Source of the DNA: Clostridia bacterium
GTDB lineage: Bacteria > Bacillota > Clostridia > Oscillospirales > CAG-272
DNA: 64,000 nt
Reading direction: 5' to 3'
Assembly (NCBI GenBank): GCA_017416185.1
Contig: JAFQDF010000035.1
Location: 51,521-115,520, forward strand
Shown here: piece by piece, positions 2,516 through 63,700 of the stretch
Layout of the letters: each line of letters opens with the position of its first letter
Position numbering within the stretch: position 1 is the first letter of the stretch
Made by a program: the position numbers and the translations under genes
The notes under the pieces: model-generated
Seen by the model: the letters and a program-made list of their open reading frames with translations, nothing else
Databases searched by the model: none
Told to the model about the DNA's origin: nothing

Positions 2516-2757
2516 AGATGAATTGAAACCGAAGGTTTCATGAATTGCCTTCGGCATGAATTGGCTTCGCCATGAATTGAAAGCCGTTGGCTTTCATTAA
2601 GGAAGATTTTTGCCTTAGCAAAAATCAATTTCAATTAAATTGCTTTTCGGCATGTCGAAAAGTTACCTTAATGCACCATCGGTGCAATTCATGACGCATT
2701 AGCGTCAATTCATGATGCGTTAGTATCAATTCATGACAGCTATGCTGTCAATTCATT
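2516..2757. repeat. hairpin-string palindromic element, copy A1 (CATGAATTG / CAATTCATG linkers)
   Basis: Four CATGAATTG linkers each followed by a self-complementary insert. Then CATTAAGG, core hairpin GATTTTTGCC-tta-GCAAAAATC, second hairpin CTTTTCG..CGAAAAG and CCTTAATG. Then four self-complementary inserts each followed by CAATTCATG, the exact reverse complement of the left linker. Confidence 0.9.
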
Positions 2758-3578: not shown

Positions 3579-4994
3579 ATGGTAAAAGTAAACAACATTG
3601 AGACCAACAAGGTAGAATTAGAGTTTACTATTGATAAGGAGAGCTTCGACAAGGCGTGTATGGCCGCATATAAGAAGCAGGTAGGTAAGATCCAGATCCC
3701 CGGTTTCCGTAAGGGTAAGGCTCCCAAGTCTATGATCGAAAAGATGTATGGTAAGGGCGTATTCTATGAAGATGCATTAAACGATCTTCTTCCCGATGCA
3801 GTTGAGGCTGCAGTTAAGGAGGCAGACATCAAGGTTGTCAGCGCTCCCGAGTATGATATTGATACAATCGACGAAAACGGCGTTGTAGTTAAGGCTAAGT
3901 TCTTTGTATATCCCGCAGTTGAGCTTAAGGAGTACAAGGGTCTCAAGGCTGAGCGCAACGTAAAGAACGTTACCGCAACTGAGGTAAACGAAGAAGTTAA
4001 GAGAGTTCAGCAGAGAAATGCAAGAACTATCGACGTAACCGACAGAGCGGCTAAGAAGAACGATACAGTCAACATCGACTATGCAGGTTCTGTTGACGGC
4101 GTTCTCTTTGACGGCGGCTCCGCACAGGGTCACGATCTCAAGCTCGGATCCGGCCAGTTTATCCCCGGCTTTGAGGATCAGATCATCGGTCATAAGATCG
4201 GTGAGGAGTTCAACGTAGAGGTAACCTTCCCCGAAGAGTACCACGCAGCTGATCTTGCAGGCAAGGCGGCAGTATTTGCTACCAAGATCAATGCTATCAA
4301 GTATGAGGAGCTTCCCAAGCTTGACGATGAGTTCGCAAAGGATGTTTCCGAATTTGACACACTTGCTGAATATAAGGCAGACGTTAAGGCAAAACTCACA
4401 GAGAGAAACGAGAAGGCCGCTGACGCTGAGGTAAACGAAAAGCTTATGGAGGCTCTCAGAGAGAACCTTGTAGCTGAGATCCCCGCTCCTATGGTAGAGC
4501 GTGAGGCTGAGAATATGGTTCGTGACTACGATACCAGACTTCGTATGCAGGGTCTTGACCTTGCTACCTACTTCAAGTATACAGGTCAGAACCTTGAGTC
4601 TCTGCGCACTCAGTTTATGCCTGAGGCAGAGAAGCAGGTTAAGACCAGACTTGCTCTTGAGAAGATCGCAGAGGTAGAAGCACTTGAGGCTACCGAGGAC
4701 GAGATCAATGAAGAGTTTGACAAGCTTTCCAAGGCTTACGGTGTTGAGGTAGAAAAGGTTCGTGAGCTTGTTGAGGATTCTGCAGTTGCAGACGATATCA
4801 AGGTAAACAAGGCGTTCGAGCTTGTTCGTGCAGAGGCTAAGATCACAAAGAAGAAGGCTGCAGCTAAGAAGACCGAGGCTAAGGCTGAAGGTGAGGAGAA
4901 GGCTGAAGGCGAGGAAAAGCCCGCAGCTAAGAAGACAACTGCCAAGAAGACAACTACAAAGAAGGCAGCTGAAAAGAAGACCGAAGATAAATAA
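3579..4994 (+). CDS. tig: trigger factor with Lys/Ala/Glu-rich C-terminal tail
   Basis: MVKVNNIETNKVELEFTI... matches trigger-factor N-termini, and the FKBP-type segment GFRKGKAP / FIPGFEDQIIGH is present. ATG at 3579 is preferred over the in-frame TTG at 3570 used by the ORF track. Confidence 0.9.
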   Translation: MVKVNNIETNKVELEFTIDKESFDKACMAAYKKQVGKIQIPGFRKGKAPKSMIEKMYGKGVFYEDALNDLLPDAVEAAVKEADIKVVSAPEYDIDTIDENGVVVKAKFFVYPAVELKEYKGLKAERNVKNVTATEVNEEVKRVQQRNARTIDVTDRAAKKNDTVNIDYAGSVDGVLFDGGSAQGHDLKLGSGQFIPGFEDQIIGHKIGEEFNVEVTFPEEYHAADLAGKAAVFATKINAIKYEELPKLDDEFAKDVSEFDTLAEYKADVKAKLTERNEKAADAEVNEKLMEALRENLVAEIPAPMVEREAENMVRDYDTRLRMQGLDLATYFKYTGQNLESLRTQFMPEAEKQVKTRLALEKIAEVEALEATEDEINEEFDKLSKAYGVEVEKVRELVEDSAVADDIKVNKAFELVRAEAKITKKKAAAKKTEAKAEGEEKAEGEEKPAAKKTTAKKTTTKKAAEKKTEDK

Positions 4995-53305: not shown

Positions 53306-53495
53306 TGAATACACTTTGTGTATTCAGCTAAATTCGCTATGCGAGCTAAATGTGCAGAGCACGCTAAATTACTTCGTAGCTAAATTGACCTTCGGTCAGC
53401 TGATATGCGAATTTAATTTAGCTGTTTCACAGAAACAATTTAGCTATCACGCAAAGCGGGATAATTTAGCTTTGCACGTAAGGGCAAAATTTAGC
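53306..53495. repeat. hairpin-string palindromic element, copy B (AGCTAAATT / AATTTAGCT linkers)
   Basis: Lead hairpin TGAATACAC-tttg-TGTATTCA. Then 4 x GCTAAAT(T) linkers separated by mini-hairpins (TCGC/GCGA, GTGC/GCAC, TAC/GTA, TGACC/GGTCA). Centre AGCTGATATGCGAATTTAATTTAGCT. Then mini-hairpins separated by 3 further AATTTAGC(T) linkers. Confidence 0.85.
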
Positions 53496-53535: not shown

Positions 53536-54429
53536 ATGAAAAAAACAGGTTTTGTCGCAATAGTAGGTCGACCCAACGTAGGTAAATCCACATTGCTTAA
53601 CGCACTTTTGGGCGAAAAAATAGCTATCATATCAAAGAAGCCCCAGACCACCCGTAACCGTATAACAGGTATACTGACCCGAGGCGAAACACAGTTTGTT
53701 TTCCTTGACACTCCCGGTATGCATAACCCCAAGACAAAGCTGGGGGATTTTATGGTAAAGTCTGTTTCCTCTGCCATTGGCGACGTGGATGCGGCGATAC
53801 TTGTAGTCGAGGCGGGCGCAAAGCCCCACGCAATAGAGCTCGGATTGATAGAGAAGTTTAAAAAAACCGATATGCCCGCGCTTCTTGTTATCAACAAGAC
53901 GGATAAATCCGACGCAGGCAAGGTTGCCGAGACGATAAACGAATACGCACCTCTCTATGAGTTTTCCTCTGTAGTTCCGATCTCGGCGCTTAACAATGAC
54001 GGCGTTGATATCGTTCTTAACGAGACGGAGAGCTTTATGGAGGAGGGTGTATGGTTCTTCCCCGAGGATGCCATAACCGACCAGCCCGAACGTCAGATCG
54101 CGGCTGAGATAATCCGTGAGAAGATACTTCGTACCCTTGATGACGAGATACCCCACGGTACTGCGGTAGTTATAGAGGCGTTTGAAGAAAGCTCCAAGCT
54201 TATCAAAATAAGAGCCGAGATATTCTGCGAGAAGGCTTCTCACAAGGGTATCATCATCGGCAAGCACGGTGCGTCATTAAAGACTATCGGTTCCTATGCC
54301 CGTGAGGATATGGAGAAGTTCTTCGGCACCAAGGTATTCCTTGATCTCTGGGTCAAGGTAAAGGAGAACTGGAGAGACTCCAATTTCAATATAAGTAACT
54401 TCGGCTTCAAGGACGATATGGGAGAATAA
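53536..54429 (+). CDS. era: GTPase Era
   Basis: G1 GRPNVGKST, G3 DTPG, G4 NKTD and a C-terminal KH domain. Confidence 0.95.
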   Translation: MKKTGFVAIVGRPNVGKSTLLNALLGEKIAIISKKPQTTRNRITGILTRGETQFVFLDTPGMHNPKTKLGDFMVKSVSSAIGDVDAAILVVEAGAKPHAIELGLIEKFKKTDMPALLVINKTDKSDAGKVAETINEYAPLYEFSSVVPISALNNDGVDIVLNETESFMEEGVWFFPEDAITDQPERQIAAEIIREKILRTLDDEIPHGTAVVIEAFEESSKLIKIRAEIFCEKASHKGIIIGKHGASLKTIGSYAREDMEKFFGTKVFLDLWVKVKENWRDSNFNISNFGFKDDMGE

Positions 54430-60871: not shown

Positions 60872-62128
60872 ATGATCAACAAGAGCTATGAATTAGCAAA
60901 AGAGATCTATGCGGCACAGGGTATTGATACCGATGCTGCGATCGCTAAGCTTAAGAACATTCCCGTTTCACTTCACTGCTGGCAGGGTGACGACGTTATC
61001 GGCTTTGACCACGACGGCCCCCTTAACGGCGGTATCCAGACCACAGGTAACTATCCCGGCAAGGCAACCACTCCCGAACAGCTTATGGCTGATATGGACA
61101 AGGTTCTTTCCCTCTGTCCCGGTACCAAGAAGATCAACGTTCACGCTTGCTACGCTATCTTTGAGGACGGCAAGTTCGTAGACCGCGATAAGCTCGAGCC
61201 AAAGCATTTCGCTAAGTGGGTAGAGTTTGCAAAGGCACACGGCTGCGGTCTTGACTTCAACCCCACCTTCTTCTCCCATCCTATGCAGAATGACGGTCTT
61301 ACCCTTTCCAGCCCCGATGAGAACGTAAGAAAGTTCTGGGTAGAGCACGGTAAGGCTTGTATCCGCATTTCCGAGTATTTCGCAAAGGAAACAGGTATGC
61401 CCTGTGTTATGAACATCTGGATCGGCGACGGCTTCAAGGATATTCCCGCTGACCGTATGGGTCCCAGAATGAGATATAAGCAGTCTATCGAGGAGATCCT
61501 CTCCGAGCCTTATGACTTCAACCTCGTTAAGCCCTGCGTTGAGTCCAAGGTATTCGGTATCGGTGTTGAGTCTTACACTGCAGGCTCTGCAGAGTTCGCT
61601 CTCTCCGTTGTTGCGGCAAATGCCGATAAGTGCATTCCCCTTATGGACAACGGTCACTACCATCCCACCGAGGTCGTTTCCGACAAGATCCCCGCACTTC
61701 TTTGCTTCTTCCCCGAGATCGCACTCCACATCACCCGTGGTGTTCGTTGGGACTCCGACCACGTTGTTCTCTTTGACGACGAGACCAAGGAAATGGCAAA
61801 GGAGATCGTTCGTTGCGACGCTCTTGACCGTGCATACATGGCTCTTGACTACTTTGATGCTTCCATCAACCGTATCTCCGCTTGGACCACAGGCTTCAGA
61901 AGCTGGCAGAAGGCTCTGCTTGCGGCTATATGTACTCCCAACGCAGCTCTCAAGGAGCTTCAGAATGCAGGCAACTTCACCAAGCTTATGGTTATGCAGG
62001 AAGAGGCTAAGATGCTTCCCTTCGGCGCAGTATGGGCTAAGTACTGTGAGGAATGCGGCGTAGCAGGCGACGCTTCCTGGTTTGACGAAGTAGAGAAGTA
62101 CGAAACTGAGGTACTTTCTAAGAGATGA
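60872..62128 (+). CDS. rhaA: L-rhamnose isomerase
   Basis: 418 aa. SLHCWQGDDV, HYHPTE and WDSDHVV motifs of RhaA. Confidence 0.9.
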   Translation: MINKSYELAKEIYAAQGIDTDAAIAKLKNIPVSLHCWQGDDVIGFDHDGPLNGGIQTTGNYPGKATTPEQLMADMDKVLSLCPGTKKINVHACYAIFEDGKFVDRDKLEPKHFAKWVEFAKAHGCGLDFNPTFFSHPMQNDGLTLSSPDENVRKFWVEHGKACIRISEYFAKETGMPCVMNIWIGDGFKDIPADRMGPRMRYKQSIEEILSEPYDFNLVKPCVESKVFGIGVESYTAGSAEFALSVVAANADKCIPLMDNGHYHPTEVVSDKIPALLCFFPEIALHITRGVRWDSDHVVLFDDETKEMAKEIVRCDALDRAYMALDYFDASINRISAWTTGFRSWQKALLAAICTPNAALKELQNAGNFTKLMVMQEEAKMLPFGAVWAKYCEECGVAGDASWFDEVEKYETEVLSKR

Positions 62129-62364
62129 ATTGAACCCTATGGGTTCATAAATTGAGCCTGGCGGCCCATGAATTGACAACTTTGTTGTCATGAATTGTGT
62201 CACAAGGACACATTAAGGAAAGTTTTTGCCTTTAGGCAAAAACAATTCTAATTGAATTAGTTTTCGCCCAAGGGCGAAAAGTTACCTTAATGCACCGTAG
62301 GAGCAATTCATGACCGTAGGTCAATTCATGGTGAAACCAATTCATGGCGAAGCCAATTCATTTA
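62125..62364. repeat. hairpin-string palindromic element, copy A2 (CATGAATTG / CAATTCATG linkers)
   Basis: It has the same order of modules as 2516..2757: 4 linkers + inserts, CATTAAGG, core AGTTTTTGCC..GGCAAAAAC, second hairpin TTTTCGCC..GGCGAAAA, CCTTAATG, then 4 inserts + linkers. The first linker contains the rhaA TGA stop. Confidence 0.9.
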
Positions 62365-63457: not shown

Positions 63458-63464
63458 TATTAAT

Positions 63465-63700
63465 GAAAGCCGTCCTTCGGGACGGCTTTCACGATATAAA
63501 TCCCTTTCGGGATTTGCGATATTCCCTATGGGGAGCGATATGCCTAACGGCGCGATATGTCCTGCGGGACGTGGGGGGATTTATATCATATCGCGTCTGC
63601 TTTAGCAGATATATCGCTTTTATCAAAGATAAAAATATCGCATTTGACCGAAGGTCAAATATATCGCAATTTGTATCCTAAGGTTACAAATTTTATATCG
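63465..63700. repeat. hairpin-string palindromic element, copy C (GCGATAT / ATATCGC linkers)
   Basis: Lead hairpin GAAAGCCGTCC-ttcg-GGACGGCTTTC. Then 4 x (G)CGATAT linkers with mini-hairpins (AATCCC/GGGATT, TCCC/GGGA, GCC/GGC, GTCC/GGAC). Centre GTGGGGGGATTTATATCATATCGC. Then 4 mini-hairpins separated by ATATCGC, the last linker being the variant TTATATCG. Confidence 0.85.

Follow-up and report, generated by a model that had tools for sequence, protein, structure and literature searches.

What kind of element separates rhaA from the SIS-domain gene that follows it in a Clostridia bacterium, and which molecule would read it? The question is raised by a 64,000-nucleotide stretch of contig JAFQDF010000035.1 (assembly GCA_017416185.1; hereafter called the window), in which a 239-bp element without an open reading frame (ORF) lies at positions 62124..62362 and recurs in a version of 241 bp at 2517..2757. 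A preliminary description had implied a structured RNA specific to two loci. Instead, the element proves to be one member of a large, dispersed, insertion-polymorphic repeat family that is tied to genes of the protein family PF05635. We classify it firmly as an ORF-less, insertion-polymorphic member of a modular class of inverted arrays, the gene-bearing members of which are PF05635 cassettes of the type known from intervening sequences (IVS) of ribosomal RNA. At a probability of roughly 0.55, we favor the reading that the element is an orphan, REPIN-like, non-autonomous derivative of such IVS-like cassettes that acts as a folded single strand and whose linkers are read by a PF05635 pentamer.

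Architecture of the two window copies

The copy at rhaA (copy 2) is a complete fold-back element, in which a left arm, a core of three hairpins, and a right arm follow one another (no strand is assigned to the whole element or to its core). In the left arm (62124..62218, + strand), the linkers GATGAATTG (62124-62132), CATAAATTG (62146-62154), and twice CATGAATTG (62167-62175 and 62189-62197) alternate with the hairpins aaccctatgggtt (62133-62145), agcctggcggcc (62155-62166), acaactttgttgt (62176-62188), and tgtcacaaggaca (62198-62210, + strand throughout), followed by a degenerate fifth linker, CATTAAGG (62211-62218). The core (62219..62284) reads aaag, TTTTTGCCtttaGGCAAAAA, caattctaattgaattag, TTTTCGCCCaaGGGCGAAAA, gtta and comprises the hairpins TTTTTGCC-ttta-GGCAAAAA (62223-62242), AATTC-taatt-GAATT (within 62243-62260), and TTTTCGCCC-aa-GGGCGAAAA (62261-62280). 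The right arm (62285..62362, + strand) starts with the degenerate CCTTAATG and continues with three copies of CAATTCATG (62304-62312, 62322-62330, and 62338-62346) and a terminal CAATTCATT (62354-62362). Interleaved with these, in this order, are the hairpins caccgtaggag, accGTAggt, gtGAAac, and gcGAAgc, with GNA triloops on the + strand.

The minimum free energy (MFE) structure of the left arm consists of four hairpins, and as DNA the - strand folds better than the + strand (-20.5 vs -17.8 kcal/mol). The whole copies reach -94 to -97 kcal/mol on the + strand (z -8.9 and -9.4), and both strands of both copies fold far better than their shuffles (z -7.3 to -9.4). All 12 exact matches to CATGAATTG or CAATTCATG in the 64 kb are confined to these two copies, at a chance expectation of ∼0.5. 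A terminator scan flagged the core hairpins on both strands, with T/A runs within the stems (TTTTTGCC..GGCAAAAA) and the tails AATTCTAATT and TTTCCTTAAT. They are probably not intrinsic terminators, because the T run pairs with the A run, which is a non-canonical form. The promoter and terminator scans were too unspecific to decide whether the arrays are transcribed.

The ORF of rhaA (60872..62128; Pfam match with E 2e-174) ends inside the element. Its stop codon, TGA at 62126-62128, sits within the first 9-mer, GATGAATTG, so that the overlap of element and stop codon noted previously holds, with the start of the element shifted from 62125 to 62124. The insertion of copy 2 provides this stop codon and probably is located within a rhaB-rhaA-SIS transcript; co-transcription is suggested because no promoter-like site follows the element. 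Any effect on the processing or stability of this mRNA would probably be a side effect. An exact query with the RhaA of the window yielded no entry. Longer RhaA homologues (P0001-P0003) have an internal 176-aa insertion that is unrelated to the element. In one locus (L118, 3001-4785), the homologue comprises 594 aa, compared with 418 aa in the window, and the 176-residue insertion is found between residues 316 and 494.

The second occurrence (copy 1, 2517..2757, no strand assigned) is positioned 7 nt past the terminator stem of thrC and 18 nt before the start of a metallophosphoesterase gene. Direct reading of the sequence bears out that copy 2 matches it module for module: in either copy, each arm holds five linkers separated by four mini-hairpins, and the two arms are inverted about a core of three hairpins. 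The earlier tally of four linkers on each side, with a single variant, is to be refined for copy 2, where two of the left-arm 9-mers are exact and two carry one mismatch, and where the right arm has three exact ones plus CAATTCATT. The cores of the two copies are 81% identical (76/94), and their hairpins share the base and differ in the top, as had been described. The arm hairpins differ in sequence and in length. Thus, the flanking inserts are indeed exchanged, except that the innermost right ones are similar (caccatcggtg vs caccgtaggag). ACAACtttGTTGT, previously thought to replace ccttcgg, corresponds by position to gcttcgc. All 16/16 flanking inserts are able to pair, three of them only imperfectly (judged partly by eye).

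By their ThrC and RhaA homologues, the window falls among Oscillospiraceae/Ruminococcaceae-like metagenome-assembled genomes. Comparison of the 3′ regions of rhaA and thrC with those of related genomes demonstrates that the element is variable. In a relative with a 95% identical ThrC (L238), the same terminator and flank extend up to ...cttatta and are followed directly by the ribosome-binding site of the next gene; the window carries the 241-bp copy 1 exactly at this empty site, without a target duplication. Other copies, too, ended without visible direct repeats. In a relative with a 98% identical RhaA (L119), the element is absent, and rhaA ends with TAA, followed by an unrelated 107-nt spacer. 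It is likewise absent from a more distant relative (L120), in which the gap between rhaA and the SIS gene measures 26 nt. As the nearest relatives lack the element at the sites of both window copies, it is, by sequence comparison, an insertion, which at the site of copy 1 is clean and lies next to a terminator.

A dispersed family of hairpin arrays and its link to PF05635 genes

We searched 185,579 species genomes for three spaced copies of CATGAATTG and obtained at least 117 stretches with spaced arrays, nearly all of them in metagenome-assembled genomes of rumen and gut Clostridia. Among the matches listed, Oscillospiraceae, Acutalibacteraceae, and Christensenellales are represented, and eight of the listed stretches, from other phyla, are simple tandem repeats. 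Arrays of 9-mer plus hairpin that run in one direction form the basic unit. Arrays range from 3 to 13 units, with four units being by far the commonest (119/210 runs); counting units with ≤3 mismatches was too permissive to be used. The arrays stand alone or, more frequently, form inverted pairs that enclose a short core (∼160 bp), and each arm carries four good linker copies and a degenerate fifth. A crude, ORF-based orientation analysis of the single arrays gave no clear bias.

The spacers of these arrays are for the most part hairpins. Of 526 spacers, 5-20 nt in length, 448 form perfect end-to-end hairpins, compared with 23.2±4.5 after shuffling each spacer, and the 526 spacers comprise 349 distinct sequences. 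In a MAFFT alignment of 29 oriented elements with five placeable hairpins (700 cells), 94.6% of the aligned hairpin cells are paired, as opposed to 76.8% with shuffled partners and 30-48% with slid partners, and 121 double-change cells contrast with 35 in the control. Pairing is therefore maintained by selection across hundreds of different hairpins, in agreement with the proposal that structure is kept while sequence changes, and the complementarity of the inserts far exceeds that of shuffled controls. RNAalifold and single-arm folds further demonstrate that an invariant TG..CA from the flanking 9-mers closes every hairpin. The linker proper thus comprises only 5 nt, TGAAT/ATTCA (full repeat CATGAATTG); the 9-mers described as constant linkers are conserved, and part of each belongs to the base of the hairpins.

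None of the 43 partner hairpins (0/43) are reverse complements of each other, as would be seen in mirror copies, and kissing loops were rejected as an explanation, as partner-hairpin loops are complementary in 1/43 cases vs 1.7 expected. By eye, linker variants of paired forward and reverse units are uncompensated (L019, L082, and L099), so that pairing of the arms into a rod has no covariation support within the family.

What accompanies these arrays? Unbiased all-against-all clustering of 672 ORFs from the fetched loci revealed a sole ORF family enriched beside them, a protein of ∼118 aa that matches PF05635 (E 3e-26) and TIGR02436 ("four helix bundle protein"), whereas neither transposase families nor cas clusters were enriched among the array-flanking ORFs. 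The start of the PF05635 gene is preceded at nine loci by the palindromic element, at a distance of 17-40 nt and always in one orientation, and at L022 the arms bracket the gene. All CATGAATTG cases (9/9) show either this fixed orientation immediately 5′ of the PF05635 gene or arms on both of its sides. The layout of arm, gene, and inverted arm is found at L022, L094, L129, L125, L166, and L179. The PF05635 protein aligns with PDB entry 2RLD (E 6e-27), which has five chains, and matches no defence family in PADLOC. S23p of Xanthomonas is a homopentameric toroid, and S23p ORFs reside in IVS of 23S rRNA, the terminal inverted repeats of which form a stem (28 bp in Coxiella) that is cut by RNase III (PMC4990558). 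PF05635 also resembles Avd, a protein of diversity-generating retroelements (PMC10053308), and has been noted inside cas loci (PMC3936711).

In a reciprocal sample of 80 metagenome loci fetched by the PF05635 protein alone, arrays stand beside the gene at ∼59, and in most of the others the upstream flank is truncated. The arrays are usually laid out as 4+4 upstream of the gene or as 4-gene-4. These loci use at least 10 linker types (ATGAATTG, GTGAAATA, ATGAAATA, ATGAAGTA, AGTGAAGT, ATGATATC, AATGATGT, ATGATTTG, AGTTATAT, and others), and the type follows the similarity and lineage of the PF05635 protein.

A corresponding arrangement exists on the PLSDB records. All 11/11 PF05635 genes inspected there (L227-L237) are bracketed by inverted heptamer arrays without hairpins; they belong to Cyanobacteria, Bacteroidota, Spirochaetota, and Monoglobus (genera Nostoc, Dolichospermum, Aulosira, Anabaena, Planktothrix, Euhalothece, Bernardetia, Chondrinema, Treponema, and Monoglobus). 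Four copies are present in the clearest cases, such as (ATTCGTA)4-gene-(TTACGAA)4. Proteins with the same heptamer are 85% identical, those with a 1-nt change in the heptamer 72-79%, and those with other heptamers ≤58%. The PLSDB cassettes are located between hsdS and hsdR, between cas2 and cas1, between genes of an RND pump, and apparently within a gene for a cytosine methyltransferase. In Monoglobus, the copy of the PF05635 gene contains an in-frame stop.

The surroundings of the PF05635 genes include a further recurrent feature. In about half of 56 loci scanned, a gene for a transfer RNA (tRNA) or transfer-messenger RNA (tmRNA) lies upstream on the same strand and ends 250-350 nt away. The features succeed one another as tRNA (many anticodons; tmRNA in L200), terminator, array element, and PF05635 gene, as seen at L136, L139, L142, L145, L153, L158-L160, L169-L178, L185-L189, L195, L196, L199, L200, and L028.

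Favored strand, putative partner, and rival explanations

The hairpins are not equivalent on the two strands. Loops of the GNA, GNRA, or GNYA type are formed by 238/448 hairpins on the strand that reads CAATTCATG vs 5 on the other strand, and 221/238 of these loops are closed by a C-G pair. The commonest 7-nt spacers are GCGAAGC (18 times), CCGAAGG (14), GCGCAGC (12), and GCGTAGC (11). Such 7-mers of the d(cGNAg)/d(cGNNAg) type are classic, extraordinarily stable DNA mini-hairpins, known from the work of Hirao, Yoshizawa, and Nakano/Bevilacqua. The loop signal is equal in both arms when each is read on its own CAATTCATG strand, and hence the favored strand runs 5′ to 3′ outward from the center on both sides. 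Under DNA parameters, the CAATTCATG strand is the more stable one in 159 vs 15 of 177 arms (p 1e-24), whereas RNA parameters give 97 vs 58 (p 0.06). All 4 window arms agree with this preference, and the short-stem right arm of copy 2 adopts a four-hairpin array with DNA parameters only. The preliminary description had implied RNA as the selected molecule; loop types and folding energies favor the CAATTCATG strand instead, with DNA parameters well above RNA.

By the reading that we favor, the window copies would derive from gene-bearing cassettes and would be non-autonomous, related to these as REPINs are to RAYT genes. The element would act as a folded single strand, each arm folding best on the CAATTCATG strand, especially as DNA, where the c-GNA-g and c-GNNA-g loops are displayed. 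The linkers between the hairpins would be the putative recognition sites of the pentamer, with about one linker per subunit, and the pentamer would be supplied by master copies elsewhere in the genome. In addition, the two arms could pair into an interrupted stem resembling the 28-bp stem of rRNA IVS that is cut by RNase III.

A more general proposition, which we put forward tentatively as a possibility, is that PF05635 pentamers (S23p/Avd) are the missing partner of intergenic short-repeat arrays across bacteria, with each lineage matched to a repeat of its own, of which every subunit would read one unit on a folded single strand (maybe DNA). Gene, arms, and orphans would then constitute a widespread system similar to RAYT-REPIN, built on a non-enzymatic ring. 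Such a partnership would cover both the hairpin arrays of Clostridia and the contiguous heptamers of Cyanobacteria, Bacteroidota, and Spirochaetes, and it would also account for rRNA intervening sequences and for cassettes inside cas, hsd, and other operons.

Several observations weigh against the pentamer-read orphan cassette. No PF05635 gene was detected in the 64-kb window (tblastn; hmmsearch E≤10) despite the presence of four elements of the class, so that a trans-acting PF05635 partner in this genome is an assumption. The match to a pentamer is loose, because an arm has four good copies and one degenerate copy. To our knowledge, PF05635 proteins have no nuclease or recombinase activity, and the mobility of the element is therefore not explained by this protein. 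The co-variation of protein and repeat could be plain co-descent. The long core and the symmetric 5+5 form are found only in the two window copies among the fetched loci. Finally, the signals for the functional strand are in conflict. A common linker variant, CGTGAATTG (24 vs 5 for its mirror), keeps a T.G wobble on the strand opposite to the favored one. In asymmetric elements, a long-range helix joins the first linker and the 5′ half of hairpin 1 to the core (98.7% paired, 16 double changes vs 5.7), and its G.U-type wobbles occur on the gene-sense strand. These asymmetric elements also share their orientation to the downstream gene (20 vs 4; 13 vs 4 without PF05635 genes), which would fit a cis role at the RNA level.

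The long-range helix uses the 5′ half of hairpin 1, and thus helix and hairpin are mutually exclusive and may represent a conformational switch. On the core side, the helix is formed by the segment that immediately precedes the right arm (columns 5-14 with 97-106 of alignment A2; for example, at L100, L099, and L114).

Among the alternatives, it is conceivable, if unlikely, that the element is a miniature mobile DNA element that moves through a single-stranded DNA intermediate by means of another enzyme (HUH/RAYT-like or other), with PF05635 as frequent cargo or favored neighbor. The clean insertion directly downstream of a terminator hairpin, which left no target duplication, the frequency of d(cGNAg)/d(cGNNAg) loops, the strand asymmetry under DNA parameters, and the occasional copies on viral contigs would all be accommodated by such a mechanism. 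However, no transposase family is enriched near the arrays, and the link to PF05635 across phyla and linker types is hard to explain as chance cargo. Moreover, the favored strand switches between the arms, unlike in HUH elements, both ends of which rely on one strand.

We consider it quite unlikely that the element is a self-standing, cis-acting structured RNA, such as a leader, an intercistronic processing or stabilizing element, or an attenuator, for which the PF05635 gene would be just one target (for example, in autoregulation of translation). The strong covariation and the common orientation of the asymmetric members agree with a cis-acting RNA, as do the location of copy 2 inside an operon transcript (the rhaA-SIS gap of the distant relative is short, and no promoter-like site lies between element and SIS gene) and the position of a third window element between a promoter-like site and the start of an Era-like ORF. 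At L066 and L068, the entire element lies downstream of a promoter-like site recognized by eye, with the start of the PF05635 gene no more than 17 nt beyond the element. On the other hand, the downstream genes have no common function, and neither window copy is found in relatives whose flanking proteins are 95-98% identical to those of the window. Many members are framed by a terminator on one side and, by eye, a promoter-like site on the other, a setting in which little transcription would be anticipated, and single arrays lack a strong orientation bias. Short-stem arms lack a predicted fold as RNA (z -0.2) and have one as DNA, the strand asymmetry is weak under RNA parameters, and no Rfam family matches.

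It is improbable that the arrays represent duplex DNA binding sites (an operator, a partition site, or a platform for a nucleoid protein) that are read through the 9-mer. Direct and inverted copies of one motif, four per arm, would suit this function, many arrays are found just upstream of promoter-like sites (by eye), and the heptamer arrays of other phyla are contiguous tandem repeats without hairpins. The centers of the 9-mers are, however, spaced 14 to 29 bp apart, placing the sites on different helix faces, and duplex recognition neither requires self-complementary spacers nor leads one to expect strand-specific loop sequences.

Chance resemblance or a trivial recent local duplication, for which one might cite the only two CATGAATTG copies in the window and a one-mismatch 9-mer total of 19 vs 16.7±4.4 in shuffles, has a negligible probability and is refuted by the family scan, the spacer-shuffle test, and the covariation counts, given that the exact matches all cluster in two elements, that >100 further loci exist in other genomes, and that the hairpins of the copies differ while their cores are 81% identical.

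Related systems and further arrays

The nearest known systems are the IVS/S23p cassettes and REPIN-RAYT. With the IVS of Leptospira, Coxiella, and Brucella, the class shares the PF05635 family, and the IVS gene is likewise enclosed by a stem-forming pair of terminal inverted repeats. Either kind is a selfish insertion of sporadic distribution (PMC4990558), and the gene-bearing relatives of the window element have the same layout of arm, gene, and inverted arm. In contrast to IVS, the window copies contain no ORF and are located between protein-coding genes instead of in 23S rRNA helices 9, 25, or 45, and their arms pair in MFE structures only as 9-bp segments interrupted by hairpins, without a continuous stem. 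REPINs are, similar to the window copies, short, dispersed, palindromic, intergenic, and non-autonomous, and both are thought to act as folded single strands; in either system, the gene is flanked by inverted repeats, and the repeat changes with the protein lineage (PMC3337134, PMC3116915). Whereas the hairpin of the repetitive extragenic palindrome (REP) is conserved, here the hairpins vary (349 distinct/526) and the linker is conserved. Furthermore, the partner here is a four-helix-bundle ring protein without known catalytic residues, whereas RAYT is a Y1 HUH transposase.

Short tandemly repeated repetitive (STRR) sequences and other heptamer repeats, such as TAACTGA of Beggiatoaceae, Cyanobacteria, and Bacteroidetes, are also short, direct, intergenic repeats near start codons or promoters. 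Heptamer arrays bracket PF05635 genes in inverted orientation as the hairpin arrays of Clostridia do, but their units are contiguous, whereas those of the window are separated by hairpins. For the heptamer repeats of Beggiatoaceae and Nostoc, function and binder are described as unidentified (PMC4679880; bioRxiv 10.1101/2022.06.06.494920).

Miniature inverted-repeat transposable elements (MITEs; Correia, ERIC, RUP, and bcr1) are comparably small, gene-less, insertion-polymorphic, and intergenic with inverted ends, and presence/absence polymorphism between close relatives is confirmed for the window element. It differs in that the empty site shows no target-site duplication, in that no related transposase-bearing element was found, and in that its ends are arrays of 4-5 short repeats with hairpins instead of simple terminal inverted repeats. 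Clustered regularly interspaced short palindromic repeats (CRISPR) similarly alternate a constant repeat with variable inserts. Their repeats measure 23-50 nt and their spacers, which are captured, 26-72 nt, compared with a repeat of 9 nt and self-complementary inserts of 5-20 nt here, where 3-13 units form inverted pairs and no cas cluster is present among the flanking ORFs. In their defining features, the element thus departs from REP, MITE, CRISPR, and STRR alike, as well as from every Rfam family; within the window, Rfam gave no match at gathering score and only chance-level matches to miRNA hairpins (E 0.04-10).

An architecture in which constant linkers of 5-9 nt alternate with variable mini-hairpins in two inverted arms, each of four to five units, is apparently undescribed. 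Literature searches with the 9-mer returned only primers and miRNA papers, searches of the literature on PF05635, S23p, STRR, and REPIN brought up no description of hairpin-interleaved arrays, and none of the cited papers on S23p, Avd, cas loci, and heptamers links repeats to PF05635. Arrays and PF05635 together suggest a new protein-plus-repeat system. Intergenic repeats are common in bacteria, and few have a known partner protein or mechanism, REP/RAYT being the main exception. For the PF05635 family, the only studied role is that of an accessory subunit of diversity-generating retroelements, and its stand-alone copies in rRNA IVS and in cas and restriction operons have so far been without explanation. 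If the link is functional, the "yet to be identified" protein that binds the cyanobacterial heptamers would gain a candidate open to testing, the existence of rRNA intervening sequences could be rationalized, and gut and rumen Clostridia would possess a new class of cassettes with a mobile or regulatory role.

Two further arrays of the class are present in the window. The third element (53326..53495, + strand) consists of four copies of (A)GCTAAAT with a degenerate GCTGATAT, the core gcgaATTTA, and four copies of ATTTAGC, its spacers being hairpins. By visual inspection, it is flanked on one side by a TTGCAC-17-TATAAT promoter-like site and on the other by a downstream ORF starting at 53538 that, judged from its N-terminal sequence alone, looks like the GTPase Era. 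The fourth element (63490..63700, + strand) comprises CACGATAT, three copies of GCGATAT, the core GGGGATTTATATC, four copies of ATATCGC, and TTATATCG, again with hairpin spacers, and is found after the terminator-like hairpin of the SIS gene and before a TTGACA-17-TAAAAT promoter-like site. An ORF of 72 aa (63463..63681) that runs through it is probably spurious. Long-range complementarity connects 63490-63501 with 63575-63586 and 53329-53337 with 53409-53417. Elements of this kind have practical effects, as they create spurious ORFs (63463..63681), supply stop codons (rhaA), and break assemblies.

Array growth and composition vary in several ways. As the sequences suggest, arrays can grow by tandem duplication of multi-unit blocks: a three-hairpin block occurs twice at L080 (7631-7752), a two-hairpin block about five times at L133 (∼1170-1490), and L092 (1686-1886) carries an 11-unit array. 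L052 (691-4000; JAFTKM010000008) contains four CATGAATTG arrays in one orientation, ∼1 kb apart, with conserved stems and differing loops, which look like a tandemly duplicated segment; immediately after at least two of them (at 691 and at 3797) comes an array of a second type, composed of (A)GTGAAGTT and hairpins. A conserved non-hairpin module, GAGCG..(N)..GCGAG followed by AA(A/T)TCATG, replaces the spacer between the first and second right-arm 9-mers at L058, L089, L093, L097, L117, L121, L073, L076, and L024, sometimes with an extra hairpin inserted. Heptamer tandem repeats (TAACTCC, CTGACTA, GCAGART, and CATTGCG) adjoin CATGAATTG arrays at L014 (∼225-290), L050, L017, L015, and L037, and another recurrent Clostridia repeat, ..ccttctcctcaaggagaaggc.. 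/ ..cacctcatccgtcac.., is found in many array flanks. In the viral collection IMG/VR, 14 contigs (L201-L214) carry CATGAATTG arrays and 12 (L215-L226) carry PF05635 genes.

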